Source of the DNA: Candidatus Eiseniibacteriota bacterium | GTDB taxonomy: Bacteria > Eisenbacteria > RBG-16-71-46 | Assembly: GCA_039917105.1 (NCBI GenBank) | Contig: JBDSKE010000003.1 | Coordinates: forward strand, 1-54,251 | Direction of reading: 5' to 3' | Length of the DNA: 54,251 nucleotides | Position numbers and translations under genes: made by a program | The notes under the pieces: model-generated | Seen by the model: the letters and a program-made list of their open reading frames with translations, nothing else | Database searches by the model: none | Told to the model about the DNA's origin: nothing | Shown here: piece by piece, positions 6,401-38,996 of the stretch | Position numbering within the stretch: position 1 is the first letter of the stretch | Layout: every line of letters starts with the position of its first letter

Positions 6401-7650
6401 AGCCGATCAAGAAAGCGGTGCTCGCGTACTCGGGCGGGCTCGACACCAGCATCATCGTGCCGTGGCTCAAGGAGCATTACGGCTGCGAGGTCATCTGCTA
6501 CTGCTCCGATGTGGGCCAAGGCGGAATGGAACTGGATGGGCTGGAGGCCAAGGCGCGCAGGATCGGCGCCAGCGATGTGATCGTCGAGGACCTGCGTGTA
6601 CCGTTCCTGCGCGACTTCGCCTTCCCGGCGTTGCGCGCGGGTGCGGTCTACGAGGGCCGTTATCTGTTGGGAACGGCGCTCGCGCGGCCGCTGATCGCCT
6701 CACGTCAGGTGTGGTGCGCCGAGCGGGTTGGCGCCGACGCACTGGCACACGGCTGCACCGGCAAGGGAAACGATCAGGTCCGCTTCGAACTCACCTATAT
6801 GGCGCTGGCGCCGCATCTGGCGGTGATCGCGCCATGGCGGGAGTGGGACATCGTCTCGCGTGAGGACGCATTGGCCTACGCCGAGAAGCATCACATCCCG
6901 GTCGCACAGAAGGTCGGCGATCTGTATTCACGCGACGCGAACCTGTGGCACCTCTCGCACGAAGGCGGGCCTCTGGAGAATCCGGCCAATGCGGCGCCCG
7001 AACCCATGTTCAAGTTGACCGCTGCGCCCGAACAACATCCGGCATGGCCCGAGCGCATCACCGTGGGCTTCGAGGGTGGACGGCCGATGAGCATGAACGG
7101 CAAGGCGCTGGGCCCGGTCGAACTCGTCGAGGCCCTCAACGAGGTCGCGGGCCGCCATGGCGTGGGCCGCGCGGATCTGGTGGAAAGCCGGTTGGTGGGC
7201 ATGAAGTCGCGGGGTGTCTACGAGACTCCGGGCGGTACCGTGTTGCACGAGGCGCTCGAGGACCTGTGCCGCCTGACACTGCCGCACGACCTCCTGCACA
7301 CGCGCCTCGAGCTGTCGCACCGATATGCCGACCTCGTCTACAACGGATTGTGGTTCTCGCCGCTCCGGCGTGCATTGCAGTCGTTCGTGGACACCGCCAT
7401 GGAAGTGGTCACGGGCGAAGTCTCGATCGAGTTGTACCGAGGCCGTGCCACCGCGGTGGCGCGCACCAGCCCGTATACGTTGTATCGCCCCGACCTGGCC
7501 TCGTTCGACATGACGGGCTACAACTCCGCACATGCCGAGGGGTTCATCCGCCTGTTCGGCCTGCCTCTGGCCACCGCGGCGCGGCGCGGACAGGCTGCCA
7601 TGGTCACCCCCACGGCGACGCCGCAGGAGGTTGTGCCGCATGTCGGCTGA
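6397..7650 (+). CDS. argG: Argininosuccinate synthase
   Basis: GTG 6397 overlaps the argD stop (GTGA). ATP-pyrophosphatase motif AYSGGLDTS. GCTGKGNDQVRFE is also present. Confidence 0.96.
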   Translation: MKPIKKAVLAYSGGLDTSIIVPWLKEHYGCEVICYCSDVGQGGMELDGLEAKARRIGASDVIVEDLRVPFLRDFAFPALRAGAVYEGRYLLGTALARPLIASRQVWCAERVGADALAHGCTGKGNDQVRFELTYMALAPHLAVIAPWREWDIVSREDALAYAEKHHIPVAQKVGDLYSRDANLWHLSHEGGPLENPANAAPEPMFKLTAAPEQHPAWPERITVGFEGGRPMSMNGKALGPVELVEALNEVAGRHGVGRADLVESRLVGMKSRGVYETPGGTVLHEALEDLCRLTLPHDLLHTRLELSHRYADLVYNGLWFSPLRRALQSFVDTAMEVVTGEVSIELYRGRATAVARTSPYTLYRPDLASFDMTGYNSAHAEGFIRLFGLPLATAARRGQAAMVTPTATPQEVVPHVG

Positions 7651-9700
7651 CGAGACGGGCACGCCAGTGGCGGGCGCGGTGTGGGCCGGGCGGCTCAAGG
7701 CCGGTCTCGACCCGCGTGCCCAGAAGCTCAACGACTCGCTGCCGGTGGATGCGCGCCTATGGCCCGAGGAGATCACGCTCTCGCGTGGCTGGTCCACCAC
7801 GCTCGCCGAATGCGGCGTGCTGTCCGCCACTGAGCATGACGCTTTGCTCAATGCCTGCGATTCGCTCGAGGCGGACCTCGCCTCGGGGGCAGCGAAGCTC
7901 GTCGGAGAAGACGTGCATTCCGCGGTCGAGGCCGCGCTTGAACACCGTTGCGGGGATCCCGCGCGCCGGCTGCACACGGGTCGGAGCCGGAACGACCAGG
8001 TTGCAACGCTGTTCCGCATGCACGTGATGCGCTTGGCCGAGGAAGCCATTGAAGGCGTGCGGGATCTGGAGCGCGCGCTGGTCCACCAGGCGCAGCGCTC
8101 GGGCGACCTCGCGGGCGCGGCCTACACCCACCTGCAGCCGGCGCAACCGGTGTTGTTCGCGCATTGGTGGTTGGCGCATGTGGCCGCACTCGAGCGCGAC
8201 GAAGAGCGCTTCGCCGCGGCGCGGGAAGCCGCGGATCGCATGCCATTGGGCTCGGGCGCCATCGCCGGCACGCCCTTGGTGCACGACCGTTACGCGTTGG
8301 CGACCCGGCTTGGCTTCAGTCGACTGGCGGCCAACAGCATCGACGCCACCTGCGACCGCGACTTCGCGCTCGAGTACCTGCAGGCCGCCGCCATGCTGGG
8401 CTTGCACCTCTCGCGCTTGGCCGAGGATCTCGTTCTGGGCTGCTCGGCGGCATTCGGTTGGTTCCGTGCACCGGATGGCTTCAGCACCGGCTCCAGCTTG
8501 CTGCCCCAGAAGCGCAATCCCGACGTCTTCGAACTCACGCGTGGCAAGAGCGCTCGCTTGCTGGCTAACGCGCAACACCTGGCTGTGCTCCTCAAGGGCC
8601 TGCCTTCCGGTTACCAGAAGGACCTGCAGGAGGACAAGGAAGCGGTGTTCGATACCGGCGACACGCTGAGCACGTTGCTCGCGGCGCTCGCCCCGGCCGT
8701 GGCCGCGCTTGAACCCGAGCGCGATCGCATCGCCGCCACGCTCACGCCCGACCTGCTCGCGGTGGAACTCGCCGACGCGCTCGTGGAGCAGGGCGTGCCG
8801 TTCCGTGACGCGCACCGCGTCGTAGGTCAGTTGTGGGCCGTGGCGGAACAGGCCGGCGTCGCACCCTCTGCGTTGCCTGAGGCTGAACGCCTGGCATTGC
8901 ACGCTTCGTTCACTGATACGCAATTGGGTGCGCTCACCGTCCAGGCATCGCTCGCGCGCCGTTCGCATGCGCCCGGCGCAGGTGCGCGCTCGGTGGCCGA
9001 GCAGTTGGCGCACGCCCAGGCGCGGCTGGGCCTGGGGCCGGGCGACCTGCTGGTTGGCGCCGAGGCGAACGATGCACCGGCTGCCACGCCGTCGGTGGCG
9101 ACGAGTCCCAGCACTCGAGAAGGCACGCTCAAAGTGCTCGAGGGCGGAATCGTGGTGCGTCGTGCGCGACTTGCCGATGTGCCCGGCATCGCCGGCGTGA
9201 TGGCCAGCTACGTGGCCGACGGGGTCCTCTTGCCCCGTCCCGTGTCGGAGCTTTTCCAATGTGTGCGGGAGTTCTTCGTTGCCGAGCATGATGGCGAGAT
9301 CGTGGCATCCGCCGCGCTGCGCGTGCTGTGGCGCGACATGGGAGAAGTGCGCTCGCTCGCGGTGCGTCAGGACCACCATGGCCGCGGGCTCGGTGCCGCG
9401 CTGGTCGAAGCGGTGATTGGTGATGCGCGTGCGCTGGGCGTGCCGCGATTGATCGCGCTCACGCGCGAAGTCCCGTTCTTCGAACGCTGTGGGTTCACCG
9501 TGGAACAGCGCGAAGCCCTGCCCCGCAAGGTCTGGACCGATTGCGTCCGTTGCCCCAAGCGGCATGCCTGCGACGAAATCGCCGTCGTGCTCGACTTGGT
9601 GCCCAACGTGCCCGAGAGCGCACTGCAGCGCACGCGCGCCTACACGCTATCCATGCCCACCGCGGTCCCCACTGAACCCCTGCTCCCCATCCTCTCGTGA
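7640..9700 (+). CDS. argH: Argininosuccinate lyase fused to a C-terminal GNAT domain of the short N-acetylglutamate-synthase type (ArgH(A)-type bifunctional protein)
   Basis: ATG 7640 overlaps argG by 11 nt. Lyase signatures TGRSRNDQVAT and GSSLLPQKRNPD. After ~470 aa comes an Ala/Pro/Ser linker, then from ~9128 a GNAT domain: VVRRARLADVPGIAGVM...EFFVAEHDGEIVASAALRVLWRDMGEVRSLAV...GRGLG...LTREVPFFERCGF. Confidence 0.93.
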   Translation: MSADETGTPVAGAVWAGRLKAGLDPRAQKLNDSLPVDARLWPEEITLSRGWSTTLAECGVLSATEHDALLNACDSLEADLASGAAKLVGEDVHSAVEAALEHRCGDPARRLHTGRSRNDQVATLFRMHVMRLAEEAIEGVRDLERALVHQAQRSGDLAGAAYTHLQPAQPVLFAHWWLAHVAALERDEERFAAAREAADRMPLGSGAIAGTPLVHDRYALATRLGFSRLAANSIDATCDRDFALEYLQAAAMLGLHLSRLAEDLVLGCSAAFGWFRAPDGFSTGSSLLPQKRNPDVFELTRGKSARLLANAQHLAVLLKGLPSGYQKDLQEDKEAVFDTGDTLSTLLAALAPAVAALEPERDRIAATLTPDLLAVELADALVEQGVPFRDAHRVVGQLWAVAEQAGVAPSALPEAERLALHASFTDTQLGALTVQASLARRSHAPGAGARSVAEQLAHAQARLGLGPGDLLVGAEANDAPAATPSVATSPSTREGTLKVLEGGIVVRRARLADVPGIAGVMASYVADGVLLPRPVSELFQCVREFFVAEHDGEIVASAALRVLWRDMGEVRSLAVRQDHHGRGLGAALVEAVIGDARALGVPRLIALTREVPFFERCGFTVEQREALPRKVWTDCVRCPKRHACDEIAVVLDLVPNVPESALQRTRAYTLSMPTAVPTEPLLPILS

Positions 9701-13775: not shown

Positions 13776-14291
13776 ATGCGCCTCATCCTGTTTCGACATG
13801 GCCTTGCCGGAGAGCGTGATCCGCTCCGCTGGCCCGAGGACCGCGACCGCCCGCTCACTGAAAAAGGGGTGGAGCGCACCCGCCAGGCGGTGCGCGGCAT
13901 CCTTCGGCTGGAGCGTCGCCTGACGCACGTTCTCGCCAGTCCGCTGGTGCGGGCCGACCAGACCGCCGCACTCCTCTTGGTGACCGCCGGCCTGGCAGGC
14001 GATCCCGAACATCTCGAGTCGCTGGTGCCGGGTGGTTCCTGGCGCAAGACGATGGCAAGACTCGAAGCCATGCCCGCCGACACGGTGATTGCCCTGGTCG
14101 GGCATGAGCCTGACCTTGGCAAACTCGCAGGCGTATTGTTGTTCGGAGCCCCACGCCCCCTGCCGCTCAAAAAGGCAGGCGCGTGCAGCATCGATTTCGA
14201 AATCAAGGCCACCACGGGCGCTGGCACCCTGCGCTGGTTCCTGGCCCCGCGCGCACTACGGCAACTGGCCGGCAGGAGGAAGAACGTATGA
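13776..14291 (+). CDS. sixA: SixA-type phosphohistidine phosphatase
   Basis: 171 aa. RHG motif in MRLILFRHGLAGE. LVGHEPDLG is also present. Confidence 0.85.
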   Translation: MRLILFRHGLAGERDPLRWPEDRDRPLTEKGVERTRQAVRGILRLERRLTHVLASPLVRADQTAALLLVTAGLAGDPEHLESLVPGGSWRKTMARLEAMPADTVIALVGHEPDLGKLAGVLLFGAPRPLPLKKAGACSIDFEIKATTGAGTLRWFLAPRALRQLAGRRKNV

Positions 14292-15040
14292 CCACGGTCC
14301 GCAGCTATGGGCAGCGACCCAACCCGTATCCGGGCAAGCTGTTCATCGTCGAGGGCATCGACGGCTCGGGCAAGAGCACCCAATTGACCCTGCTCGCTCA
14401 ATGGTTGCGAAGCGAAGGGCATCTGGTCGTGTTCAGCGAATGGAACTCCTCGCCAGTCGTCAGCAGCACCACCTCGCGGGGGAAGAAGCGACAGTTGCTC
14501 ACGCCGCTCACCTTTTCGCTGATCCACGCCACCGATTTCTCGGACCGAATCGAACGCGACATCATTCCCGCGCTCAAGGCGGGGGCCATCGTGCTTGCGG
14601 ATCGTTATGTTTACACCGCATTCGCGCGCGACGTGGCTCGTGGCGTCGACCGCGCATGGGTCCGCTCGCTGTATCGCTTTGCGACATTGCCAACGCTGGC
14701 GCTTTACTTCCGCGTTCCCCTGGATGTGGCGTTGTACCGCATCCTGTCGGGCCGACCCAAGCTCAAGTGGTATGAAGCCGGCATGGACATGGGGCTGCAC
14801 ACCGACGTGACCGAATCGTACAAACTCTTCCAGGGCAGCATCCAGGAAGAGTACGAGCACATCGTGGGTGAGTATGGCCTTGCGGTGATGGACGCCACAC
14901 GCCCGGTCGAGGTGCAACAGCGGGCGTTGCGGGAGTTGATCGCGCCCTACCTCGTGGGCGAAACACCCGGTCCGCTCGGTCCTGACTCCCCGGTGCTCGT
15001 CCAGCCGGATCACCCGGCGCGGGTGGAGGCATCGCGATGA
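14288..15040 (+). CDS. Thymidylate-kinase-like P-loop kinase, paralogue 1 (canonical Walker A)
   Basis: ATG 14288 overlaps the sixA stop (ATGA). Tmk-type P-loop FIVEGIDGSGKSTQ. DRY motif LADRYVYT. Non-canonical LID region KLKWYEAGMD. About 250 aa. Confidence 0.85.
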   Translation: MTTVRSYGQRPNPYPGKLFIVEGIDGSGKSTQLTLLAQWLRSEGHLVVFSEWNSSPVVSSTTSRGKKRQLLTPLTFSLIHATDFSDRIERDIIPALKAGAIVLADRYVYTAFARDVARGVDRAWVRSLYRFATLPTLALYFRVPLDVALYRILSGRPKLKWYEAGMDMGLHTDVTESYKLFQGSIQEEYEHIVGEYGLAVMDATRPVEVQQRALRELIAPYLVGETPGPLGPDSPVLVQPDHPARVEASR

Positions 15041-15750
15041 GGCGCTTCGAGTCCTATGGAACCGGCATCCCGAGAGTCCGCTTGGACGATTTATCCGGCT
15101 GGCTCATCGTGATCGAAGGCACCGATGGCGTCGGGCGCACCACGCACATCAACAAGCTCCGCACCCATCTGGAGCGCCTGGGATATGCGGTGGCCGAAAC
15201 CGGCCTGACCCGTTCGGATCTCGCCAGCCGTGGCATCCGCAGTGCCAAGTTGGGCAACACACTCGGGTCCAAGGCATTCAATCTTTTCTATGCGACCGAT
15301 TTCGCCGACCGCCTTGAGCAGCAGATCGTGCCCGCGTTGCGCAGTGGGTTTGTGATGCTCACGGATCGCTATGTGTATTCGCTCATCGCGCGCGCCATCG
15401 TACGAGGCGCCGAACCCGACTGGATCAAGCAGGTCTTCTCATTCGCGCTCAAGCCAGACGCCACGTTCTACCTGCGCATCGGTGTGGACGAGCTCGTACC
15501 CCGCGTGCTGTCGGACGGGGGGGGATTCGACTACTGGGAATCGGGCATGGATCTTCCCATGGGTGACGATCTTTACGATTCGTTCATGAATTACCAGCGC
15601 CGTATCATCCAGGAACTCGACACACTGGCGCGCGAATATGCATTCCAGACGATCGATGCCACGCTCAAGGTTGACGAGATCTCGCGGGACCTGTGCGATC
15701 GCGTCGCGGATGTGTTGGCGCAACGGCCGAAACCACTAAGCAAGGTTTGA
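15037..15750 (+). CDS. Thymidylate-kinase-like protein, paralogue 2 (Walker A Lys replaced by Arg)
   Basis: ATG 15037 overlaps the upstream stop (ATGA). P-loop VIEGTDGVGRTTH has GR instead of GK. DRY motif LTDRYVYS. It shares ATDF.DR.E..I.PAL and YWESGMD with paralogue 1. Confidence 0.8.
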   Translation: MRRFESYGTGIPRVRLDDLSGWLIVIEGTDGVGRTTHINKLRTHLERLGYAVAETGLTRSDLASRGIRSAKLGNTLGSKAFNLFYATDFADRLEQQIVPALRSGFVMLTDRYVYSLIARAIVRGAEPDWIKQVFSFALKPDATFYLRIGVDELVPRVLSDGGGFDYWESGMDLPMGDDLYDSFMNYQRRIIQELDTLAREYAFQTIDATLKVDEISRDLCDRVADVLAQRPKPLSKV

Positions 15751-15755
15751 ACGAG

Positions 15756-16640
15756 ATGCTCGTCCCAGCGTCCGGCGACGTGGCGGATCTGGCTCGTGAA
15801 CTGCGCGCCGCCATGCTGCGCCGGGCCGCCCGGCTCATGCGGACGGCTTCGCGCGTGCGCCAGGATCAGGACCCCGGGGCCGTCCACGACCTGCGCGTCG
15901 CCATCCGTCGCCTTGAGGCGGCCCTTTTCGTGTGGCAGCGGCTGCTGGCAGCCAAGCCGCTTCGCCGGACCATGCGGACCTTGCGCAGCCTGCGTCGCAA
16001 GGCAGGCGCCACGCGCGAATCCGAACTGCATGCCATGCTGATCCGCACGCATCTGGAGGCGGCGCCCGCCGAGTTCCGCGACGCGCTCGAGCATGTGATT
16101 GAAATGCTCGAGGAACGCCGCAATCTGGACGCGACCAAGCTGCGGGTCCGCGTGGCACCTTGGCGCATCGAGCGCCTCACCCGCCGACTGCGGCGCACGC
16201 TGCGGCCTTTGGCGAGCGCGCTGCCCTTCGTGCACGACCCGGAGCGCGACGCCCTTGCGCGGGTCGAGCAACAACGACGCAGAGCGCTCACGGCGCTGCT
16301 CGAGGCCCATCCCAGCGCGTCCGACACTGCGCTGCACGAGGCGCGACTCTGGGTGAAACGTTGGCGGTATGCCGAGGAGGCGCTCACCGCAGCCGGCGGG
16401 CCGGAGATCGCGGGAGACGAGACCCTGCGGGAGCTGCAACAGGTGCTGGGCGAGATCCAGGATCGGGCCACGCTTCGCGTGCGCGCGCTCGAGTTGGTCA
16501 ACGAGCAGGTCCGGCGCGACAACACCTCTGGCGCCGCTGCACTGCAGTGGCTCATCACGCAGTTGGAGTCCGAACGCCTCGACGCGGTGGAGCGGTTCCG
16601 TTCGCGGCCCCAGCCCGTTGACCGCGGCTCACCGGCTTGA
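15756..16640 (+). CDS. CHAD domain protein (polyphosphate-granule-associated domain family)
   Basis: ATG 15756 lies 5 nt after the upstream stop. CHAD signature VHDLRVAIRRLEAALFVW, and a second helix-pair motif LHEARLWVKRWRYAEE. The start is somewhat uncertain. Confidence 0.82.
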   Translation: MLVPASGDVADLARELRAAMLRRAARLMRTASRVRQDQDPGAVHDLRVAIRRLEAALFVWQRLLAAKPLRRTMRTLRSLRRKAGATRESELHAMLIRTHLEAAPAEFRDALEHVIEMLEERRNLDATKLRVRVAPWRIERLTRRLRRTLRPLASALPFVHDPERDALARVEQQRRRALTALLEAHPSASDTALHEARLWVKRWRYAEEALTAAGGPEIAGDETLRELQQVLGEIQDRATLRVRALELVNEQVRRDNTSGAAALQWLITQLESERLDAVERFRSRPQPVDRGSPA

Positions 16641-18210
16641 CCGACTCGCTCGCCGGCCGCACTGCGTGCGCGCGCGGGTCGAGCCCCAGCTGGACACGGG
16701 CGCCCAGGAGCTTGCCCAGCCCCTCCAGGCGCCGCCGGGCGGCCCAGAGCTCGAGCTGGGCATCGCGCCGGGCCATGACCAGCACCGAGACGCACTTCCC
16801 GCGGCGCACCACACGCAGGTCGCGGATCAACTGATAATGACTGCGGTCGAGCCCCTCTGCGATCCGCAGCATGGCCGATAACCATTTCACCATACGTCGG
16901 GTGCCCTTGGACAACGAAGCATAGTCCGCATTGCCGCCCCTGCGCGGCCGGGGCTTGCCGTGATACCGCGCAACCGAGGCCACGACCTCGACCTCTGCTT
17001 CATCGAGCCCTCGCAGCGCACCGTGGCGGATGATGTAGGCCGAATGTTGCGCGTGCCCATCGTAGCCAACCACCGAACCCACGTCGTGCAATAACGCCGC
17101 GTAGTGCAGCAGCTCCCGTTCGGTTTCGTCCAGTCCATGCGCGGCTCGCAGCTCATCGAACAGGCGCAGTGCCAGCTTGGCCACGTGGCGGGGGTGCGGT
17201 CCGTCGGCGCCGAAACGAGCCAGCAACCCGAGCGCACTGCGTATCCGCAGGTCCTCGATCGGCCCCAGGGCCTTGACCTCGCGCGCATGCCGCTCGAGCC
17301 AATCGGTGACCAAGCCCTCGCGGACACCGAAGTCCGACAGCGTGATCTGGTCGACACGGGCCTGGCGCAACACCTCGAGCAACACCAATCCGCCCGGCAC
17401 GATGATCTCGGCGCGACGAGCATCGAGTCCAGGTAGTCTCTCGCGCTGCGCCTCGGACATGCGCCACAACCGCTTGACTTGGCGTTCGAGCGAGGCCGCC
17501 GTGATCACGTGCCCATTGATCTGGCGGATACCCTCACCCCTCTCGTTCCAGTTCGCCACCTGCGCCAACGCATGGATCGCTCCCGAACTGCCGAATACGC
17601 TGACCGGCTTGACCTCGCCAATGGAACGAAAGGCGAAGCGCAATTGCTTGCGGATGTGCCGCTGCAGCGAGGACAACTCACGTGGGGTGGGGGGGTCGTG
17701 CGATAACAAGGTCTCGGTCAGGCGCAACGAGCCCAACGGCACACTCACCACCTGATGCAATCTCTCGCGGTCAGCTACCACCAACTGTGCGCTGCCGCCG
17801 CCGATGTCGACGATGAGCGATGGGCGAGCGTCCAATTGCAACGCTGCGCGGGTCGCCAGATAAATGAGTCGGCCTTCCTCCTCGGCGGGAATCACGCGCG
17901 GCGAAACCCCCGAGGCCGAGCGGGCGGCCCGCAGGAACTCGCCACCATTGCTGGCCTCGCGCACCGCTGCCGTCGCGGTGCACAGGATGCGGTCCACCTG
18001 ATGCCGTCTCGCCAACTGCACGAACCGCCGCAGGGCCGCGACCGTGCGTCGCACGGCCTCACCCTTCAGCCGGCCAGCCTCGAATGACCCACGCCCCACC
18101 TGCACCACCTCGCGTTCGCGATCCAACACTGCGAACTCGGTTTGGCGCACGGACTCGGCGATGACCATATGGATCGAGTTGGTGCCAATATCTATGGCTG
18201 CTATACGCAT
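16555..18210 (-). CDS. ppx: Ppx/GppA exopolyphosphatase with a C-terminal HD domain
   Basis: ATG 18210 gives MRIAAIDIGTNSIHMVIAE (ASKHA phosphate-1 motif). IVDIGGGSAQL is present. HD-domain motif HYAALLHDVG. The upstream part of the ORF (18211-18351) is judged non-coding. Confidence 0.92.
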   Translation of the reverse strand: MRIAAIDIGTNSIHMVIAESVRQTEFAVLDREREVVQVGRGSFEAGRLKGEAVRRTVAALRRFVQLARRHQVDRILCTATAAVREASNGGEFLRAARSASGVSPRVIPAEEEGRLIYLATRAALQLDARPSLIVDIGGGSAQLVVADRERLHQVVSVPLGSLRLTETLLSHDPPTPRELSSLQRHIRKQLRFAFRSIGEVKPVSVFGSSGAIHALAQVANWNERGEGIRQINGHVITAASLERQVKRLWRMSEAQRERLPGLDARRAEIIVPGGLVLLEVLRQARVDQITLSDFGVREGLVTDWLERHAREVKALGPIEDLRIRSALGLLARFGADGPHPRHVAKLALRLFDELRAAHGLDETERELLHYAALLHDVGSVVGYDGHAQHSAYIIRHGALRGLDEAEVEVVASVARYHGKPRPRRGGNADYASLSKGTRRMVKWLSAMLRIAEGLDRSHYQLIRDLRVVRRGKCVSVLVMARRDAQLELWAARRRLEGLGKLLGARVQLGLDPRAHAVRPASESVKPVSRGQRAGAANGTAPPRRGVRTPTA

Positions 18211-19368: not shown

Positions 19369-20892
19369 ATGAAACGCCTTCAATCATTCGTAGTCACGGC
19401 TGCTGCCCTGCTCTTTCTCGCCCTCCCGGCTTTATCTGCGAACGCCGCGGGCCCACAACCGGTGGTGCTGAAATTCGCGCAAGCCGCGCCTGCCCGGGTC
19501 TCGATCAATATCTACGACGTCACCGGTCAGCTCGTTCGTCGAGTCCTCGACCAGGACATGACCACGGGAGACCATTCGGTTACTTGGGATGGAGTAGCCG
19601 ATAATGGCCGAACCATCGGGCCGGGGTTGTACTTCACCAAGATCCAAGTGGGCTCGGCAGTGTTCCAGGGTCGCATCGCGGTTGCCGGGGGCGTCATGAC
19701 CACAGCCAATTCAGGCGCCCGCCCTGTGGCGATTCCTGAGAAGCGCCGCCAAAACATTGCAGCGGCCGGCGTCCTGTACGTCGAGAGCAACGATCCTCGG
19801 CCTGGCATGAATGCCATTCTTGCCTATCGGCGCTCCGCGGACGGTTCGCTTTCGCCGCTACCAGGAACTCCCTTCTTGACCGGCGGGGCTGGCGTCGGAG
19901 ACCCGACGCAGGCACTCGGGCCGCTCGATTCCGATCAAGAAATCGTCGTGAGCGACGACCATCAGATGCTGTTCGCAGTCAACTCAGGAAGCAACACCAT
20001 CGCCGTCTTCGACATCGCCTCCGATGGATCGCTTGCTTCCGTTGCCGGGTCCCCCTTCCCCTCGGGAGGCATCAACCCGGTCAGCCTCGGGCTTGCGGGG
20101 GACAAGCTTTACGTCGTGAACAAGAACATGGACCCAGGCCAGGAAGGTGCCCCAGGCCTGCCCAACTACACCGGTTTTCGTGTTCGCCAAAGCGGCGAGT
20201 TGAGCCCGATCCCAAACTCAACAGCCACCGCACCGCCAGGGTCGTCGCCGACCCAAGCACTCATCGCGCCCAACGATCGGCTCATGTTCGGGGCTGATTT
20301 CTTCGCTGGCGATTTGCGCGCCTTCCGGATCGAACCCAGTGGTCGTCTCCAGGAAGCTCCGGGCTCTCCTCAGAAATTGCCCTCATTCGTACCACCTCCT
20401 GCCTTGCCGTTGGGGTTGGCCGCGCACCCTTCGTTGAACCTTCTCTATGTGGGATTCGTCACCGCGGATTCAATCGGAGTCTATCGATACGATTCAACGA
20501 CCGGCGCATTGACATTCCTGCACGTCGCGGACGATTCAGGAAGTGCCCCCTGCTGGATCATCGTCAATCAGCCAGGGAGCGCCGCTTACGTGGTCAACAC
20601 AGGGGACAACTCCGTCTCGTTCTACAGCCTCGCCAACCCAGAAATGCCCCTCGAGACCCAACACCTGATCATGCAGGGCCCCGGCATGCCGTTTCAGGAG
20701 GCACTCGATCCCTCGGCCAGATTCCTCTATGTAGTCTCGCAGCGGACGACAATCGACCCGACTGACCTGACTGGAAACGTGTTGCATACGCTGCTGGTGG
20801 CTCCGGACGGGACCATTACGGAGGCGCCGTTCTCACCGCTGGCTTTACCGGTCCCGTATTTTGCAAGGCCCCAGGGCATCGTGGTGCTGTGA
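19369..20892 (+). CDS. Secreted protein with an N-terminal FlgD-Ig-like domain and a lactonase-type 7-bladed beta-propeller
   Basis: AAGGAG RBS. Signal peptide MKRLQSFVVTAAALLFLALPALSANA. Residues ~30-105 (ARVSINIYDVTGQLVRRVL...HSVTWDGVADNGRTIGPGLYFTKI) match the FlgD-Ig pattern. The remainder has repeated ...FAVNSGSNTIAVFDIASDGSL..., ...LYVVNKN..., ...AYVVNTGDNSVSFYSL... blades. Confidence 0.8.
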   Translation: MKRLQSFVVTAAALLFLALPALSANAAGPQPVVLKFAQAAPARVSINIYDVTGQLVRRVLDQDMTTGDHSVTWDGVADNGRTIGPGLYFTKIQVGSAVFQGRIAVAGGVMTTANSGARPVAIPEKRRQNIAAAGVLYVESNDPRPGMNAILAYRRSADGSLSPLPGTPFLTGGAGVGDPTQALGPLDSDQEIVVSDDHQMLFAVNSGSNTIAVFDIASDGSLASVAGSPFPSGGINPVSLGLAGDKLYVVNKNMDPGQEGAPGLPNYTGFRVRQSGELSPIPNSTATAPPGSSPTQALIAPNDRLMFGADFFAGDLRAFRIEPSGRLQEAPGSPQKLPSFVPPPALPLGLAAHPSLNLLYVGFVTADSIGVYRYDSTTGALTFLHVADDSGSAPCWIIVNQPGSAAYVVNTGDNSVSFYSLANPEMPLETQHLIMQGPGMPFQEALDPSARFLYVVSQRTTIDPTDLTGNVLHTLLVAPDGTITEAPFSPLALPVPYFARPQGIVVL

Positions 20893-29717: not shown

Positions 29718-32657
29718 TCACAGCGTTCCGGCGTCCCCGACCAGCACGAACGACGCCCAATGGAACGGCCACGCGGTCACCGGATCATCGATCAGGCCAC
29801 GCTTGGCGTCACGCAACGACGCCGCACGTGAGCGATGTTTGAGTAACAACTCGCTGTAGAACCGGCGCATCAGGCGCTCGGTCGAGGTGTCGCTCACATC
29901 CCACAGACTCACGACGACGCTGCCGGATCCGGCGGCGAGGAACGCGCGGGTCAGCCCCAGCACTCCTTCGCCGCGCACGACTTGGCCCAAGCCGCTGCCA
30001 CACGCCGACAACGTGACGAGCTCGGCCGACACGGGTTGCGCAAGGATGTCGCGCGCCTCCAGCCGCGTCGGCGCCCCGCTCGAATCCGCCGCGAGCCACA
30101 GGCCCGACCGCTCGGGCTCCGCCACCAGCGCGTCCCCGTGCGTGGCCAGGTGCAGCACGCGTAGTGGCGCATGCGTGGCCGCCAAAAGCGCGGTGCGGTC
30201 GGCGCCGGCGCCAGTGATCCGGGTGAGCGAGCCCTTGGGCGAGAGTGCTTCCAGCGTCGCCACCTCGCCGGCGGTGCCGGGCAGCGCTGCGAGCGGCAGG
30301 CCGGCCGCGACCGGGGCATCTCCGTACCGCGCATCGCCCAGTGCCACGCTCTGCTTTGCGCGTGCGGCGCTCGGCACGCCGAGCAGCGCGGACGACGGCA
30401 GATACGACACTTCAAAGCGGCCGGCGAGCGGGCCGCGCTGGCCCGCGAACGATAGCGCCTCGAACGGCAGCGTCCACAGCATGCCATCCGGCAGGATCAC
30501 CAGATGTTGCACCCCAGCCAGCAATGGTGCGGCGGGATCGAGAATCTGGGCAGACAACTCCGCGCCAAGCTTCGCGGCGCGCGTACGATCGGACTCGCTC
30601 GGATCGGGCTTGGCCCACAGGCGGCGCAGTGTCTCGACCCGCGTGCGCAGCTTTGAGCGGGTGGGCAAGGTCACGCGCTTCCAGCGGTCACGCCGCACCA
30701 CCCACAAAGATGAACTGGAATCCCCCAGGCTATAGGCCAACAGCGCAGTGCGTGCATCGGGCAGTCGCGCCTGCACCTGGGTGAGCCTGAGCGGCCTGGG
30801 CGGCGACCCGCCCGACTCGGTCCGCGCCAACAGATCAAGCAGCGCCCGCGCCCGCGCGCGCTCGGCCCAGTCGAACGCCTCAGCCGCGCGGCCGCGATCG
30901 GGTTGGGTGGCGTCGAGCTTTCCCAGCAGATGCACGAGTGCTTCGTAGGCGAACACGCCACGCCCGAACACCGACAAGGAGGCGCGTTCATCGCCTTGAC
31001 GCACCCGCAGCGTGTCGAGGCGCGCCGCCACCTCGCGGTACGACGCCAGTGCGCCTTCGATATCCCCGGAACGCTCTGCCACATCGCCAAGCGCCAGGCG
31101 CGCGACCCATTCCAACTCGAGCGCGTGAGCCGCGCGCGCCTCGCGTTCCGCCCGTTCCAAAGCCGCGCGCGCATCGGGCAAGCGGTTCATACGACTCCAT
31201 AACCCTCCCAGATTGGACAGGGACAACGCCTCGCGCGCGCGCCCCAATCCACTGGCGGCACGCAGCGCGCGGGTGAAGGCTGAATCGGACGCCGCGAAGT
31301 CGCCGGCATCGAATGCGAGCGAACCCAGAAGCGAAGCGGCCGACCACGCCAGTTCGGGTTGTCCCGTCTCAAGGGCGGCTTCATACATCGCCTCGGCCAG
31401 TACTCCTGCGCTATGGATGTCACCTTCCTGACGCGCTGCCAATGGACGCAACGACCCGACTCGAGCCTGGAGCGGGGGATTCTCGAGCGAGTCGGCCAGC
31501 GCCAGCGCCGCAGCCAGCGGCGCCCGCGCCCGCACGGGGTCTTCGGCAATGAGCCACACGCGCGCTTCATGGAAGTGCGCCTCGCACACGCCACCGGGAT
31601 TGCGGGCCGTGCGCGCGGCATCGAGCCCGGCACGGGCATCGGCCGCTGCCTCGGCATAACGACCCAGGGCGGTGCGCACGCTGGCCCGATTCAAGCGTGC
31701 CGTGGTCTCGAGTCGCGCATCGCCATTGCCCACGAAGATCGCGAGCGCGCGGGAAGCAAGCCCTTCGGCGCGCTCCAGTTCGCCCTGCGATTCCAATTGT
31801 TTGGCCAGATTGAGCATCGCTTCGCCTGCGCGCGCGCTGTCGCCCGCAGCGCTCGTCAGTTGCAGCGCCGACTCGAACGCCACGCTCGCGGAATCGGGCT
31901 CACCCGTTTCGCGGAACACCAGCCCCAGCCCATTGAGGGTTGCCCCGAGCGCAGCCTGTTCGCGCGTGCGCATACGCACCGCGCGCGCCTCGAGTAGAAA
32001 GGGCCGCGCCACGGAGTAACGCTCCAGTTGGATGTTGGTGGATCCGAGCGCATTGAGTGTGGCACCGATCATGCGCTCGTCGCCCAGAGCTCGCCGCGCC
32101 ACCAGCGCCCGTTGATAGTGACGCTCGGCGTCTTCGTATCGGCCCGATAAGAATGCCACCACCCCGCGGCTGCCCAGGACCCATGCGCTTCGGCGCTGCT
32201 CACGAAGCGCCTGATAGTCGGCGAACGCATCCGCGAAGAGCGTGTCGGCCGCGGTGAACTCGCGCGAGCCCTGAGCTGCAATCGCGAGCGATTCGCGCTC
32301 AGCTGCATGCACGCGGCGGCGGCGATCGGTCGGGGTCCACCTGGCCGCAAGCGCCAATGCGTCGGACGCGATGTGGGAGCCGCGCGCCTCAGGTTCCGAT
32401 CGGGCGGTGGCACGAGCCAGTGCCCACCAACGCGCGCCCTCCCCGGCGGGACCCGCGCGCAGCGCGCTCACCCACAATGCGTTCCAGGCGGCCTCATAGC
32501 CATTACCCAAAGACGCGATGGTGGTGACCCGCGTGCTGTCGGGAACATCAAGACGCGCCCAGACCTGCGCTGCTGCTCCTTGCGCACTGAACAGGAGCGC
32601 GAGGCCCGACAGCGACGCGCTGGCGAACCACGCGCCCAAGCACCGCCCCCGGATCAT
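29718..32657 (-). CDS. Secreted TPR-repeat protein with a C-terminal CHAT (caspase-like) protease domain
   Basis: ATG 32657 overlaps the sodA stop (ATGA, tcat at 32654-32657). Signal peptide MIRGRCLGAWFASASLSGLALLFSAQGAAAQ. About 600 aa of Ala/Leu/Arg-rich TPR-like helices. The CHAT dyad is intact: VLHLATHGDA (His) and LVTLSACGSGLG (Cys). Confidence 0.9.
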   Translation of the reverse strand: MIRGRCLGAWFASASLSGLALLFSAQGAAAQVWARLDVPDSTRVTTIASLGNGYEAAWNALWVSALRAGPAGEGARWWALARATARSEPEARGSHIASDALALAARWTPTDRRRRVHAAERESLAIAAQGSREFTAADTLFADAFADYQALREQRRSAWVLGSRGVVAFLSGRYEDAERHYQRALVARRALGDERMIGATLNALGSTNIQLERYSVARPFLLEARAVRMRTREQAALGATLNGLGLVFRETGEPDSASVAFESALQLTSAAGDSARAGEAMLNLAKQLESQGELERAEGLASRALAIFVGNGDARLETTARLNRASVRTALGRYAEAAADARAGLDAARTARNPGGVCEAHFHEARVWLIAEDPVRARAPLAAALALADSLENPPLQARVGSLRPLAARQEGDIHSAGVLAEAMYEAALETGQPELAWSAASLLGSLAFDAGDFAASDSAFTRALRAASGLGRAREALSLSNLGGLWSRMNRLPDARAALERAEREARAAHALELEWVARLALGDVAERSGDIEGALASYREVAARLDTLRVRQGDERASLSVFGRGVFAYEALVHLLGKLDATQPDRGRAAEAFDWAERARARALLDLLARTESGGSPPRPLRLTQVQARLPDARTALLAYSLGDSSSSLWVVRRDRWKRVTLPTRSKLRTRVETLRRLWAKPDPSESDRTRAAKLGAELSAQILDPAAPLLAGVQHLVILPDGMLWTLPFEALSFAGQRGPLAGRFEVSYLPSSALLGVPSAARAKQSVALGDARYGDAPVAAGLPLAALPGTAGEVATLEALSPKGSLTRITGAGADRTALLAATHAPLRVLHLATHGDALVAEPERSGLWLAADSSGAPTRLEARDILAQPVSAELVTLSACGSGLGQVVRGEGVLGLTRAFLAAGSGSVVVSLWDVSDTSTERLMRRFYSELLLKHRSRAASLRDAKRGLIDDPVTAWPFHWASFVLVGDAGTL

Positions 32658-33409
32658 CCCTTCTTCGCGTCGCGGTACCGGCCCGATATCACATTCCAGT
32701 CCATCACCTTCGAGAACGCCGCCACGTACTCGGCTCGACGATTCTGGAACTTGAGATAGTAGGCGTGCTCCCACACATCGATTCCGGCAAGCGGGGTGTG
32801 CCCCGCGCTGAGCGGCGAATCCTGATTGGGCAGGGTTTCGATCGCGAGTGCGCCTTTCACGTCAAGCGTGAGCCACGCCCAACCGCTACCGAACACGCTC
32901 ATGGCGGCCGCTGTCCACTTGTCCTGGAACGCCGAGAACGACCCGAACGTGGCGTCGATCCCCCTGGCCAGCTCACCAACCGGCGCCCGCGTCCCATCAT
33001 GCTTGAGGCTGGTCCACAGCAAGGAGTGGTTCGCATGCCCGCCACCGTGGTTGCGCACCGCCGTGCGGATCTCGGCCGGCACCTGGTCGAGCTTGCGCAG
33101 CAGATCTTCCACGCTCCATTTGGCCAGGTCGGCCTTGCCCGCCACTGCCTTGTTCAGATTGGTGACGTAGGCCGCGTGATGTTTGTCGTGATGGATCTGC
33201 ATGGTCTGCGCGTCAAGGTGTGGCTCGAGCGCGTCGAACGCGTAGCCCAATGCCGGGAGCGTGAAGGGCCCGATGGGCGCGGGGGTGGCGGAAGCGGTCG
33301 GCGACGGGGCGGATGCCTTGGGGTCATGCCCGAACGCCATGCGCGGCAGTAACGCGCCTCCTGCGCCCAGGGCCAAGGTCTTCAGGGCTTCGCGACGGGT
33401 CATCTTCAT
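32654..33409 (-). CDS. sodA: Mn-type (Fe/Mn family) superoxide dismutase with a twin-arginine signal peptide
   Basis: ATG 33409 has GGAGG 7 nt upstream. Tat motif in MKMTRREALKTLALGAGGALLPRMAFG. Motifs LPALGYAFDALEPH, IHHDKHH, GGGHANHSLLW, FGSGWAWL, PNQDSPL and DVWEHAYYLKFQNRR. By eye it is very close to E. coli SodA. Confidence 0.95.
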   Translation of the reverse strand: MKMTRREALKTLALGAGGALLPRMAFGHDPKASAPSPTASATPAPIGPFTLPALGYAFDALEPHLDAQTMQIHHDKHHAAYVTNLNKAVAGKADLAKWSVEDLLRKLDQVPAEIRTAVRNHGGGHANHSLLWTSLKHDGTRAPVGELARGIDATFGSFSAFQDKWTAAAMSVFGSGWAWLTLDVKGALAIETLPNQDSPLSAGHTPLAGIDVWEHAYYLKFQNRRAEYVAAFSKVMDWNVISGRYRDAKKG

Positions 33410-34803: not shown

Positions 34804-37356
34804 TCAGCGGATGCGCACGAAGCGCGCCTGACGCTCCTCGCCTGCTGCGCGCAATCGCACGAAGTACAGCCCCGGTGCAGCGGCGCGGCCCTCGCCGTCA
34901 CGGCCATCCCACAGCAGCAGGTGTTGCCCCGCGCCGAACACGCCGCGCGCAAGCGAACGCACCACGCGCCCCTGAGGATCGATCACGTCGGCCTCGAGTC
35001 GGCCTTCGCTTGGCAGCGACACCTCGAACCGAGTCTCGCCGCGCGAGGGGTTCGGCCAGGGCGAACGCAACGCCAGTTGCGATGAGACGGGTGCCCCCGT
35101 GTTCGGCGCCGATGCCTCATAGAACACCAAGTCGTCGATGGCCGCCTCCACCACGTTGCCCGGCGTCAGGTCGGAGGCGACGAAGCGGATGCGCATCTGG
35201 GCGGTCGGTATCATGAAGTCGCGCACCCGGACGCGCGACTCGGTCCAAGCGTTGTGCAACCCCTGCACGCGCTCCACCAACGTGTAGGTGGTCCCGCCGT
35301 TGCTCGAGAGGTACACATCGAGTGCGTCGGTCGAGTCCGTGGGCGTATTGGTATAGAACCAGCGCCAATACCCGATCACCGGATCGGCGTAGGACGAGAG
35401 GTCGTATACCACCGTGGTGAGCGAGGTCTTGCCGTTATCCACGTCAGCCTGCCCGATCTGCGTGGGATCGGTACCCTGACCCGTCACCCAGCATAGGGTC
35501 CCAGCGCCTGGCGTGCGGTCGTACTCGGGCTGCACCTCACCTGGCGTGGCGGCGCCCTCCTCGGGCTCTTCGTGCATCGGCTGGGCCGGGCCCTTGAGAC
35601 TCGCAAGCGGACCGCCGTCACGCCGCGCTCCCAATCCGGAGCCGGGCTGTGCGCTGCCCGTGCCTATCGGCTCGCCGCGTATCCACAGCCCCGCGGTCGC
35701 ATTGTCGTCCGTTGCACCCACGGTCCAACCGTTCGCGGCCTCCTGCGCGTCGTAGAACGCTGCAGGCGTGAGTTGAAAGTCTCCCATCTCGTAGCCAGGA
35801 CCCACCCGACGCGTGAGTGTGACGGGCACATAGCCGGGTCGGCGCACCTCGACAAGGTAGACATCCTCGGGGACCGCACCCAGCGCGTAGGCGCCCGAGG
35901 CATTTGTCTGTGACGACAGCGGCGTGTCCTTGAGCGTGATCTCGGCACCCTCGAGCACGACTTGCGTGTTGGCGTCGCGAACCACACCACTGACCGCCGT
36001 CGTGGGCTTGGTCTGCAGGGTGAGCGTGACCGGTGTCACAACGCCGGCCGTCACCACGGCGCTGGCGCTGACCGGCTCGTACCCGAAGACTTTGCACGAG
36101 ACGGTGTAGCTGCCCGGCGTGGGTGCGAACTGTAGTACGCCGTCCATGGCGGTCTCGAGTGAATCGCCTTGCGGCGTGAGCCGCACGCGCGCACCCGACA
36201 CCGCCCCCCCACCCGGCTGTGAGATGGCACTCACGCGCAGCAGCCCGTAATCACGGTTCGGCTGGTACACGTACAAGCCGGTCTGCATGTCGCTGGCGAT
36301 CACCAGGCCCGAGGGAAAATAGGGGCACACGCCCCAGACCCCGAAGAAACCGCCCGAAGCACCGGGCCACGAATCCGCCGAAGCGAACTCGGCCGGATGC
36401 ACCGGATCGGAGATGTCCAGCGCGCGGATTCCCTCCGTGTAGTTCGAGAGGTACAACTCGCGCCCCTTCACATGTGCGTTGTGAATAATCGCGTTGGGAT
36501 TCGAGGTCAGGCGATTCACGAGCACGGGCGAAGTGAGCGTGCTGATGTCGAACACCTTGAGCGGCTCGCCATTGACCTCGTCGGTCACATAGAGCGTGTT
36601 GCCCGAACTGTCCGGCCAGGCGTTGTGGGTGAAGCCGCCCGGATAGGTCCAACTGCTCACCAAGGTGGGTGCTGCCGGGTTGGTGAAATCGAACACCCGC
36701 TGGATACCCGCATACACGGACGAACCATACAACCGCGTGCCGATCGGGACGCTGTCGTGGATGTAGTTCTCATTCGTGACAGGCAGCGCGCCGCCCGGCC
36801 ACCAACTGATCTCCACCGGGGCTTCGGGGTTCGCGATCGATAAGATGCGCATGCCGGCGGCCATGCCGGCAGCGTCCCGGGTGCCGTTGCAGATGAGCAG
36901 CTTCCGCGTGGTGTCGACCGAGACGGTGTGCGAGCGCACGAAGGTGCCGGTGTAGGTGGCTGCCAGCACGGGCGCCTCGGGATTCGTCATCCGGATGATC
37001 TGCAGCCCCTGACCGGTACCGGTCCCTTCGGTCACCACATAGATCCAATCACGGTATGATTTCATCTCGCGCCAGATCGAGGTGGGTCCCAGAATGAGTC
37101 CCACGCGATAAGTCGCAGCAGGATTCGTCACATTGTAGATGGCGGTGCCGGCATTGGTCCCGATCACGGCGTATTCTCTGCCATCCGAATGGATGTAGGA
37201 CCAGCATTCCGAGTAGCTGTTGGCAGTTGGGCCCAACGAGAACTCGTTCAGGTGCGCCAGCATCGTGAAATTGCGGGAGACCGGGATCTGCGCCAGCGCC
37301 AGCGACACGCTGGCAAGCGTCGAACACAGGGCGAAAGCCAGGACGCGGAACCTCAT
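34804..37356 (-). CDS. Secreted LVIVD-repeat / choice-of-anchor-B beta-propeller protein with a CarboxypepD_reg-like domain and a C-terminal FlgD-Ig/Por-tail-like domain
   Basis: Signal peptide MRFRVLAFALCSTLASVSLALAQ. Repeated blades IYNVTNPAAP, IIRMTNPEAP, ILSIANPEAP, VFDFTNPAAP and ALDISDPVHP. C-terminal PNPSRGETRFEVSLPSEGRLEADVIDPQGRVVRSL...WDGRDGEGRAAAPGLYFVRL. Confidence 0.85.
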   Translation of the reverse strand: MRFRVLAFALCSTLASVSLALAQIPVSRNFTMLAHLNEFSLGPTANSYSECWSYIHSDGREYAVIGTNAGTAIYNVTNPAATYRVGLILGPTSIWREMKSYRDWIYVVTEGTGTGQGLQIIRMTNPEAPVLAATYTGTFVRSHTVSVDTTRKLLICNGTRDAAGMAAGMRILSIANPEAPVEISWWPGGALPVTNENYIHDSVPIGTRLYGSSVYAGIQRVFDFTNPAAPTLVSSWTYPGGFTHNAWPDSSGNTLYVTDEVNGEPLKVFDISTLTSPVLVNRLTSNPNAIIHNAHVKGRELYLSNYTEGIRALDISDPVHPAEFASADSWPGASGGFFGVWGVCPYFPSGLVIASDMQTGLYVYQPNRDYGLLRVSAISQPGGGAVSGARVRLTPQGDSLETAMDGVLQFAPTPGSYTVSCKVFGYEPVSASAVVTAGVVTPVTLTLQTKPTTAVSGVVRDANTQVVLEGAEITLKDTPLSSQTNASGAYALGAVPEDVYLVEVRRPGYVPVTLTRRVGPGYEMGDFQLTPAAFYDAQEAANGWTVGATDDNATAGLWIRGEPIGTGSAQPGSGLGARRDGGPLASLKGPAQPMHEEPEEGAATPGEVQPEYDRTPGAGTLCWVTGQGTDPTQIGQADVDNGKTSLTTVVYDLSSYADPVIGYWRWFYTNTPTDSTDALDVYLSSNGGTTYTLVERVQGLHNAWTESRVRVRDFMIPTAQMRIRFVASDLTPGNVVEAAIDDLVFYEASAPNTGAPVSSQLALRSPWPNPSRGETRFEVSLPSEGRLEADVIDPQGRVVRSLARGVFGAGQHLLLWDGRDGEGRAAAPGLYFVRLRAAGEERQARFVRIR

Positions 37357-37475
37357 CGTACGGGGATCTCCTCATATTGGGGCAGTGGGATGGCAACCCA
37401 AGCATAGCCCGGGGGACGCTCAGCCTGTTAGATTCCTTCCGCGCCCATTTGGTTCAGCCCCCCAAAGGACCCCCC

Positions 37476-38996
37476 ATGAGCCTCTCCCGCCGCCAGTTCC
37501 TGCGCACTTCGCTGCTCGCCGGGGCTGCCACACTCGTGCCAACACAACTCGCTTACCTGCTTGCGGGGGACGCCCGGGCAGGGTCCCTCGATTCGCTGCT
37601 CACGCAGGTCTCGGGCGGTCCCGGTGCTCGGGCGGTGGGGTATGGGCCGCTCCGCCCGGACCCTGACGGGTTGCTGGACCTGCCGGCGGGGTTCCGATAC
37701 CAAGTGCTCTCGCCCGGCGTGCTCGAGAGCGACCATGCGCGCGAACTGCGCTTCGCCAGCATCCTCAGCAATGGCGACGCCACCCCGCCGCAACATGATG
37801 GCATGGCGGCGTTCGCGGGCCCCAAGGGCATGACCATCCTGGTGCGCAATCACGAACTGAACCCATGGGACAGGCCACTGCTCGACCCGGCTCGCATGCG
37901 GGCTTACGACGCCAAGGCGGGCGGGGGCACCACCACGCTGTGGGTGGACCGCGACCGACGCCTGGTGAACTCGTTCGCGAGCCTGTCGGGCACGCTGCGC
38001 AACTGCGCGGGCGGCGCTACTCCTTGGGGCTCGTGGATCAGCGCCGAGGAGTGCGTGTACCTGCCGGGCAAGCTCGATCCGCGCAACACCGACCTGACGC
38101 CCGATGTGGCGGAACGGCACGGCTACCTGTTCGAGGTCGACGCGAGCGCCACCTCGCTGGTGGAGCCAAAGCCCCTGCGCGAGATGGGCCGCTTCCGACA
38201 CGAGGCGGTCGCGGTCGATCCGCGCACGGGATTCGCCTACCTCACCGAGGACCGCGATGACGGGCTGCTGTATCGGTTCCGGCCGCAGGTGGTGACGCGC
38301 GGCCAGACAGCACCGGCGCGCCTCGCCGTGGGCGACTACGCCCGCGGCGGCACGTTGGAAGCGTTGCGGATCATCGGAACGCCGCAGGCGATAACAAGCA
38401 ATCATGAAGGATCAGCAGTGTTCACGCGCGGGCGTTCGCACCGTGTGGACTGGGTGCCCATCGCCCAGCCCGATCCGGATTGCGATACCGAACGCGATCC
38501 CGCGGACACGAATCCCGACCCGCAGAAGCGCCGCATGCGTACCGCCGCCGGGAGCACCCGCGCACAAGGCTTTTCCGCCGGCGCGGCGCAGTTCTCGAGG
38601 TGCGAGGGAATCATCCATCACGGCGGTGCGATTTACTGGAGCGCGACGGATGGCGGCCGCACCAAGGCGGGCCAGGTCTGGCGGTTGGAGCCGGCAAGGC
38701 AACGGCTGACGCTGGTGGTGGAACCCAATGAGATGGCCCGCCTGGACATGCCCGACAACCTCTGCGTCGGCGTCAATGGCGACGTCCTCGCGTGCGAGGA
38801 TGGCTCGGGCGACAACTTCCTCGTGGGCATCACGCCGCGCGGCACGCTGTATCCGCTCGCGCGCAACGCCCATCCCCTCAAGCGCGAGCTGGCGGGTTGT
38901 TGCTTCTCGCCGGATGGTCGCACGCTCTTCTTGAACCTGCAGCAGCCGGGAATCACCTTCGCGGTGTGGGGTCCGTGGGCTCGTCGTCGTGCGTGA
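37476..38996 (+). CDS. phoX: PhoX-type (DUF839) alkaline phosphatase with a Tat signal
   Basis: MSLSRRQFLRTSLLAGAATLV (twin-arginine). Motifs HDGMAAF, VRNHE, NCAGGATPWGSWISAEE, GYLFEV, GRFRHEAVAVDP, YLTEDRDDGLLYRF and PDGRTLFLNLQ. Confidence 0.9.
   Translation: MSLSRRQFLRTSLLAGAATLVPTQLAYLLAGDARAGSLDSLLTQVSGGPGARAVGYGPLRPDPDGLLDLPAGFRYQVLSPGVLESDHARELRFASILSNGDATPPQHDGMAAFAGPKGMTILVRNHELNPWDRPLLDPARMRAYDAKAGGGTTTLWVDRDRRLVNSFASLSGTLRNCAGGATPWGSWISAEECVYLPGKLDPRNTDLTPDVAERHGYLFEVDASATSLVEPKPLREMGRFRHEAVAVDPRTGFAYLTEDRDDGLLYRFRPQVVTRGQTAPARLAVGDYARGGTLEALRIIGTPQAITSNHEGSAVFTRGRSHRVDWVPIAQPDPDCDTERDPADTNPDPQKRRMRTAAGSTRAQGFSAGAAQFSRCEGIIHHGGAIYWSATDGGRTKAGQVWRLEPARQRLTLVVEPNEMARLDMPDNLCVGVNGDVLACEDGSGDNFLVGITPRGTLYPLARNAHPLKRELAGCCFSPDGRTLFLNLQQPGITFAVWGPWARRRA

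Follow-up and report, generated by a model that had tools for sequence, protein, structure and literature searches.

A putative bacterial family-3 polyphosphate kinase operon in a Candidatus Eiseniibacteriota bacterium

Polyphosphate (polyP) kinase of family 3 (PPK3) was first described in Sulfolobus (Hofmann et al., JBC 2026, PMC12995831; preprint 2024, bioRxiv 10.1101/2024.08.28.610084). The operon of S. acidocaldarius runs from saci_2017, encoding SixA, through saci_2018 (PPX), saci_2019 (cPPK3) and saci_2020 (rPPK3) to saci_2021 (CHAD); Saci_2019 is the catalytic subunit and Saci_2020, inactive alone, stimulates the enzyme and drives its oligomerisation (PMC12995831). The same five gene families are carried, as their matching gene contents indicate, by positions 13,776 to 18,210 of the stretch of DNA analysed here (the window), which comprises 54,251 nucleotides of contig JBDSKE010000003.1 (assembly GCA_039917105.1) from a Candidatus Eiseniibacteriota bacterium and contains two adjacent genes, A and B, resembling thymidylate kinase (Tmk). 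By analogy with the archaeal enzyme, this cluster is very probably a bacterial PPK3 operon encoding a hetero-oligomer of A and B, in which A would move phosphate between polyP and ADP/ATP and B would stabilise or regulate the enzyme.

The S. acidocaldarius enzyme (SaPPK3) is an a2b2 hetero-oligomer that catalyses the reversible reaction polyP(n) + ADP <-> polyP(n-1) + ATP with a preference for ATP formation (PMC12995831). A low ATP/ADP ratio leads to ATP formation and a high ratio to polyP synthesis; ADP is the preferred nucleotide and GDP is accepted weakly (PMC12995831). Neither Saci_2019 nor Saci_2020 has dTMP kinase (dTMPK) activity, which resides in the separate protein Saci_0893, and PPK3 was placed inside the dTMPK superfamily, apart from PPK2 (PMC12995831). 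For the SaPPK3 model that was published, the ipTM is 0.86. According to the abstract of this work PPK3 is present in "a few bacteria", and bacterial operons with PPX, SixA and CHAD were already predicted there, with the further proposal that PPK3 took the place of PPK1 in situ, or PPK1 that of PPK3 (PMC12995831).

Two further systems offer partial parallels. In the two-domain class II PPK2 of Pseudomonas aeruginosa (PA3455), an active and an inactive P-loop module cooperate in a manner that favours polyP-dependent nucleotide phosphorylation (PMC12995831), and natural fusions of the two PPK3 subunits mimic this architecture; nevertheless, class II PPK2 is a different family, and it phosphorylates AMP whereas SaPPK3 phosphorylates ADP (PMC12995831). 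Bacterial ppk1-ppx neighbourhoods contain the same SixA and CHAD accessory genes, while the window is devoid of PPK1 domains.

The S. acidocaldarius locus (L081) contains SixA, PPX, Saci_2019, Saci_2020 and CHAD. As in Sulfolobus, the gene for the catalytic (c) subunit is followed in the window directly by that for the regulatory (r) subunit and then by the CHAD gene, and the dTMP-binding motifs are lost. On the contrary, ppx is convergent and downstream here but co-directional and located between sixA and the c gene there, and its product is a protein of 551 amino acids (aa) with an HD-like domain III instead of one of 411 aa. B has a DRY motif, all active-site arginines and a Walker-A Arg, whereas Saci_2020 has lost the arginine at three positions (DGY, Q and W) and has a P-loop Lys. 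The hosts differ as well, the present one being a mesophile-type bacterium with 65% GC. Because PPK3 is published and bacterial operons were explicitly predicted with it, the locus represents a known system, in a bacterial copy that is so far uncharacterised, and not a new one. The original prediction for this DNA, according to which the Tmk-like pair belonged to no known polyP system, is superseded on this point by the 2024 preprint and the 2026 article.

Catalytic-type subunit A and regulatory-type subunit B

A (14288..15040, plus strand, 250 aa) is the predicted catalytic polyphosphate kinase subunit. Its best match among solved structures is STK_15430 (2plr/5h70; 188.6 bits, E 1e-54, residues 16-218 vs 4-205), while the best canonical Tmk in the same search of the PDB reached only 57 bits. 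STK_15430 is a 'probable thymidylate kinase' of Sulfurisphaera tokodaii (2plr, 4nzy, 4rzx, 5h70) with 48% alignment identity to A, and it is the best solved structure for B as well; its structures are of a homomer annotated as Tmk, without partner subunit or polyP. A is 50% identical to Saci_2019, and both fall in a c clade with a bootstrap of 90/100 in a neighbour-joining tree of 155 sequences, in which a branch of 1.3 units sets the whole family apart from E. coli Tmk. Profiles for the c and r classes were built from bacterial loci only, leaving out window and archaeal sequences. A scored 380.8 bits with the c profile and 216.3 bits with the r profile (margin +164 toward c), and the four Sulfolobales c subunits had margins of +62 to +73 in the same direction. 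The P-loop of A, EGIDGSGKST, is encoded at 14351..14380 (plus strand) with its Walker-A lysine, K29, intact, and its DRY motif (DRX, Walker-B-like) at 14600..14608 (plus strand), both as read from the sequence. The Walker-A Lys was present in 80/80 c-type sequences and the DRY Arg in 100% of them. From its sequence, A is thus classed as an orthologue of cPPK3.

B (15037..15750, plus strand, 237 aa), which is 33% identical to A, is the predicted regulatory or oligomerisation partner. It scored 344.2 bits with the r profile and 201.6 bits with the c profile, a difference of 143 bits toward r; the four Sulfolobales r subunits were likewise classed as r, with margins of -41 to -57. In the PDB search B matched STK_15430 at 125.5 bits and its best canonical Tmk at 51.5 bits. 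The identity of B is 35% with Saci_2019 and 30% with Saci_2020; conversely, the top match of Saci_2020 in the window is B (99.4 vs 63.9 bits). These scores assign B to the rPPK3 class. The original prediction had treated the two proteins as a pair of like kinases, a view replaced here by a catalytic-type A and a regulatory-type B whose Walker-A Lys is changed to Arg.

This change lies in a degenerate P-loop, EGTDGVGRTT, encoded at 15115..15144 (plus strand), where Arg34 (codon CGC, 15136-15138) takes the place of the lysine. The Walker-A Arg was found in 73/74 r-type sequences. The r subunits of the Sulfolobales (L083 3626-4243, L084 3624-4256, L085 3617-4243 and L081 5621-6253) fall into two groups at this position: those of S. 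tokodaii and M. sedula have Arg, those of S. acidocaldarius and S. solfataricus Lys. Saci_2020, the r subunit studied biochemically, thus does not have the P-loop residue typical of its class, and the Arg P-loop of the first two species connects the bacterial r class with the class that was shown to be inactive. The main text of PMC12995831 makes no mention of the Lys-to-Arg change of r subunits. At the second motif, DRY, encoded in B at 15364..15372 (plus strand) as read from the sequence, the Arg is kept in B and in 97% of the 74 r-type sequences, while all four Sulfolobales r subunits have DGY and moreover carry R->Q and R->W changes at two further arginine positions. B also keeps R92, R119, R123, R156 and the WESGxD lid segment, which are retained in 97-99% of r-type subunits. 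The classes differ at lid position K160, where 95% of c subunits have K/R and 78% of r subunits have Asp. A has a GKK motif that is reduced in B, the arginines are for the most part common to both classes, and the exact residues of the polyP cleft are listed in the supplement of PMC12995831. Across the r subunits, 44 of the 237 columns of B are conserved at 95% or more, and the r class evolves slightly faster than the c class (mean pairwise identity 50.5% vs 57.1%).

Operon layout, relatives and fusions

The operon begins with a sixA-type histidine phosphatase gene (13776..14291, plus strand). Its product of 171 aa starts with MRLILFRHG and has RHG and GHEP motifs; it scores 77.1 bits with TIGR00249 (cut-off 74.5), matches PF00300 (His_Phos_1) and is 28% identical to Saci_2017. 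A and B come next, followed by a gene for a CHAD-domain protein (15756..16640, plus strand, 294 aa; PF05235, 83 bits) that is predicted to bind polyP granules, as is described for CHAD domains (PMC10892726). On the minus strand, a convergent gene (16555..18210; stop at 16555, likely start at 18210) encodes a Ppx/GppA-type exopolyphosphatase of 551 aa with an HD-like domain III, matched by PF02541 (211 bits), PF21447 (87 bits) and HD (39 bits). This protein reached 261 bits with TIGR03706, under the cut-off of 307, and remained far under those of the GppA and PPX equivalogs; its profile scores thus place it in the Ppx/GppA family and do not fix the substrate, that is, PPX or GppA.

The sixA/A and A/B junctions are ATGA overlaps (14288-14291 and 15037-15040, from the raw sequence and the list of open reading frames, ORFs), and at the B/CHAD junction a TGA at 15748-15750 is followed after a 5-nt gap by an ATG at 15756. 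The 3' ends of the CHAD and ppx genes overlap on opposite strands by 86 nt (16555-16640), an overlap of identical length being found in a 92%-identical relative (L086, 12265-12350). Both protein tails encoded in this overlap look low-complexity. This relative (L086/L087) carries all five genes, its three junctions each being a 4-nt overlap and its ppx convergent, and the homologues of CHAD and Ppx are again of 294 and 551 aa in L086. In the same way, L001, the closest locus of the genome collection, has the same gene order. Since these loci repeat the five-gene arrangement, it is not due to chance. The coordinates, overlaps, 5-nt gap and convergent Ppx/GppA gene that had been reported for this locus were all recovered, and the proposal that the four plus-strand genes are one conserved polyP-linked unit is borne out by L086/L087 and L001 and by the neighbourhoods described below. 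ORFs for the Pfam scans were picked by hand, a GC3-based gene caller having missed several operon genes.

Relatives were taken as the best 80 loci from a scan in which each GTDB species was represented by one genome, with c genes 54-82% identical to A. The scan counted 549 relatives, a number that perhaps includes canonical Tmks because the pattern EGIDGSGK is not specific to PPK3, and only the 80 loci were verified. The best-scoring locus was a Candidatus Eisenbacteria metagenome-assembled genome. The 80 loci are drawn from species genomes, 78 bacterial and 2 archaeal, and cover at least 12 bacterial phyla, including Acidobacteriota, Chloroflexota, Nitrospirota, Planctomycetota, Desulfobacterota/Binatota, Armatimonadota, Bacteroidota, Ignavibacteriota, Actinomycetota, Eisenbacteria and Zipacnadia, plus Nitrososphaerales. 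Beyond this set, STK_15430 has matches at E <= 1e-20 in about 4000 protein clusters (90% identity), and B has matches at E <= 1e-30 in 189 clusters (50% identity).

A c+r pair was found by tblastn in 79 of the 80 loci, the exception being interrupted by a contig end, and in 76 of them the r gene is directly downstream of the c gene. The order r-(CHAD)-PPX-c was observed in three Planctomycetota loci, with CHAD detected by the profile census in each of them and by tblastn in L023. In the Planctomycetota loci L022 (4729-8004), L023 (5242-8001) and L036 (4913-7981), CHAD and PPX share a single ORF, an apparent fusion, and the operon reads r, CHAD~PPX, c where other loci have c followed by r. Within 8 kb of the pair, PPX was present in 50/80 loci, SixA in 35/80, CHAD in 34/80, all three in 20/80 and at least one in 56/80, so that the pair occurs mostly within polyP contexts. 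These counts come from domain-trimmed profiles, which replaced an iterative census with whole-ORF hidden Markov models (HMMs) in which the CHAD profile had absorbed PPX via read-through ORFs and the SixA matches were inflated to 197. The c and r labels of the iterated profiles were unreliable, both having converged on the whole family, and tblastn, the tree and the separately built profiles were used instead.

Pairwise identities of c and r subunits correlate across loci (r = 0.86), which indicates co-inheritance. Natural tandem fusions of c and r were found in P0008, P0025, P0362 and P0437; MAFFT put all r sequences on the c half of P0008. Three metagenomic proteins of 650-696 aa (P0397, P0406, P0414) fuse two Tmk-like domains to a Ppx domain III/HD region and, from their domain composition, are putative Rosetta-stone fusions in which the PPK3 pair is physically joined to a domain that handles polyP. 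Another architecture was seen in P0479, P0484 and P0494 (507-1237 aa, metagenomic), where a PPK3-like Tmk domain is joined to a DUF2252/APH-type phosphotransferase, in one case with an MFS transporter; no published description of this Tmk plus DUF2252/APH architecture was found.

Alternative readings and a proposed mechanism

Both proteins match the Thymidylate_kin family PF02223, A at 72 and B at 71 bits, as an HMM comparison suggested with the original prediction confirmed, and their relatives are labelled 'dTMP kinase' in source databases. Canonical E. coli Tmk shares with them the fold, the P-loop, the DR(Y/H) motif and the lid arginine. That A and B are ordinary or duplicated thymidylate kinases lying by chance beside polyP genes is nevertheless hardly credible. 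Their scores with the dTMP-kinase equivalog TIGR00041 (76.2 and 77.3 bits, respectively) are under its cut-off of 83.25, and their identity to E. coli Tmk (b1098) is no more than 24-27%; they also differ from it by occurring as an obligate pair. The REPGGT loop that binds dTMP is replaced by EWNSS, invariant in c subunits including A, and by G-x-x-R-S in r subunits (TGLTRS in B), and E. coli Tmk R78 aligns to F. While holB flanks E. coli tmk, neither holB nor replication genes were found near the operon in the window. Moreover, the orthologous archaeal pair is devoid of the dTMPK activity that Saci_0893 has, and the polyP neighbourhood recurs across phyla. The earlier view that the pair does not correspond to a housekeeping tmk therefore stands.

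A PPK2-like polyP:NMP kinase, acting on NMPs or dNMPs rather than on ADP, would fit the P-loop kinase fold and the polyP context, and the weak use of GDP by the Sulfolobus enzyme goes in the same direction. It is still an improbable reading, since neither A nor B matched PF03976 (PPK2) at E <= 0.1, the comparison with this family thus giving nothing for a kinship that had been considered, and since PMC12995831 separates PPK3 from PPK2 and gives ADP as the preferred acceptor. The earlier hypothesis of a polyP-driven (d)NMP kinase survives in part: a polyP-driven nucleotide kinase agrees with the orthologous Sulfolobus pair, but the characterised substrate is ADP/ATP, with GDP used weakly, and not (d)NMPs.

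A third alternative is nested within the PPK3 assignment and concerns B alone. The inactivity of rPPK3 was put down to loss of the DRX catalytic arginine (PMC12995831). The two features of B that point to a regulatory role are others, namely the Walker-A Arg shared by 99% of r subunits and the Asp that replaces lid Lys160. In P-loop NTPases, a Walker-A Lys-to-Arg change usually spares nucleotide binding and abolishes or cripples phosphoryl transfer, and for this reason B is most likely a nucleotide-binding pseudo-kinase. If both subunits were functional instead, B would provide a further site for ligand binding or catalysis, either an allosteric sensor of nucleotide or polyP or a kinase of other specificity. 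This would account for the retention of the DRY motif, the four further arginines and the lid segment, for the many highly conserved columns, for the only slightly faster evolution of r than of c, and for the fact that the inactive Saci_2020 has lost three arginines that B retains. On the contrary, the Walker-A change is near-universal in r subunits, the lysine conserved in the lid of c subunits is Asp in r subunits, and the Arg P-loop of the bacterial class also occurs in the r subunits of S. tokodaii and M. sedula. A functional B is therefore regarded as possible but rather unlikely. We are equally doubtful that in bacteria and Nitrososphaerales, which make up most of the PPK3 family sampled, the r subunit has a functional nucleotide or polyP site that senses energy charge or even carries out a second reaction.

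In the PPK3 assignment that we favour, A as catalytic subunit and B as its presumably impaired paralogue would assemble into a hetero-oligomer, a2b2 in Sulfolobus, that reversibly passes phosphate between polyP and adenine nucleotide. The natural c-r fusions and the correlated divergence of the two subunits lend indirect support to such an assembly. The CHAD protein, co-transcribed with the pair, would place the system on polyP granules or tether it to them, the convergent Ppx would hydrolyse or trim polyP ends, and SixA probably has a regulatory role. Several observations weigh against this assignment. The available biochemistry is that of an archaeal enzyme with 50% identity to A, from which the activity of A is inferred. 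Monophyly of all r subunits had a bootstrap of only 48/100 in the neighbour-joining tree. B does not show the published feature of rPPK3 inactivity: its DRX arginine is present, as DRY, together with all the other arginines of the active site, so that B can only be presumed inactive. The pair stands without any polyP gene within 8 kb in 24 of the 80 loci, some of them on short contigs. Finally, a genome with PPK3 would be expected to have a separate canonical tmk and usually to lack PPK1 and PPK2; the search for these covered the 54-kb window and found no third Tmk, no PPK1 and no PPK2.

Surroundings of the operon and implications

The operon is flanked by arginine-biosynthesis genes, a TrxB-like reductase and an M14 peptidase. 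Between 13400 and 18700, a search for promoters and terminators gave nothing above shuffled expectation, and footprinting upstream of sixA with three relatives revealed patchy conservation only and no recognisable Pho box. Within the argC-argD-argG-argH-argF cluster, an argininosuccinate lyase with a C-terminal GNAT acetyltransferase was found (7532-9700, plus strand), an ArgH-ArgA-like fusion that is kept in the relative L086 (2497-4560). A second phosphate-economy gene, encoding a PhoX-type alkaline phosphatase with a twin-arginine translocation (TAT) signal (37377-38996, plus strand, 255 bits), lies about 19 kb from the operon.

Among the other genes of the window, four encode large predicted secreted or surface proteins with FlgD_ig (5-2527, 19369-20892, 34804-37356 and 48113-50179), whose further domains include PPC, lactonase-like, CarboxypepD_reg/LVIVD and Exo_endo_phos; this set looks like a lineage-typical sorting or adhesion module. 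A protein of 1018 aa with TPR and CHAT (caspase-like protease) domains is encoded at 29718-32774 on the minus strand (CHAT, 216 bits). In addition, a class II (B12-dependent) ribonucleotide reductase of 1070 aa with a C-terminal TSCPD domain was found at 39339-42551 (plus strand), its barrel domain being matched in two stretches, possibly owing to an insertion.

Until now, the characterisation of PPK3 was limited to a thermoacidophilic archaeon. The loci described here show a wide distribution of the c+r pair among uncultured bacteria of soils and sediments. Because the genes of this pair are still annotated as "dTMP kinase", the polyP metabolism of these lineages is misread when phosphorus cycling is inferred from genomes. 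The pattern of degeneracy of the bacterial r subunits moreover raises the concrete question of how the regulatory subunit works. Were the r site functional, bacterial PPK3 would differ mechanistically from SaPPK3, and the Sulfolobus model, in which rPPK3 is dead and its DRX arginine lost, would be a derived special case and not the general mechanism of the family.

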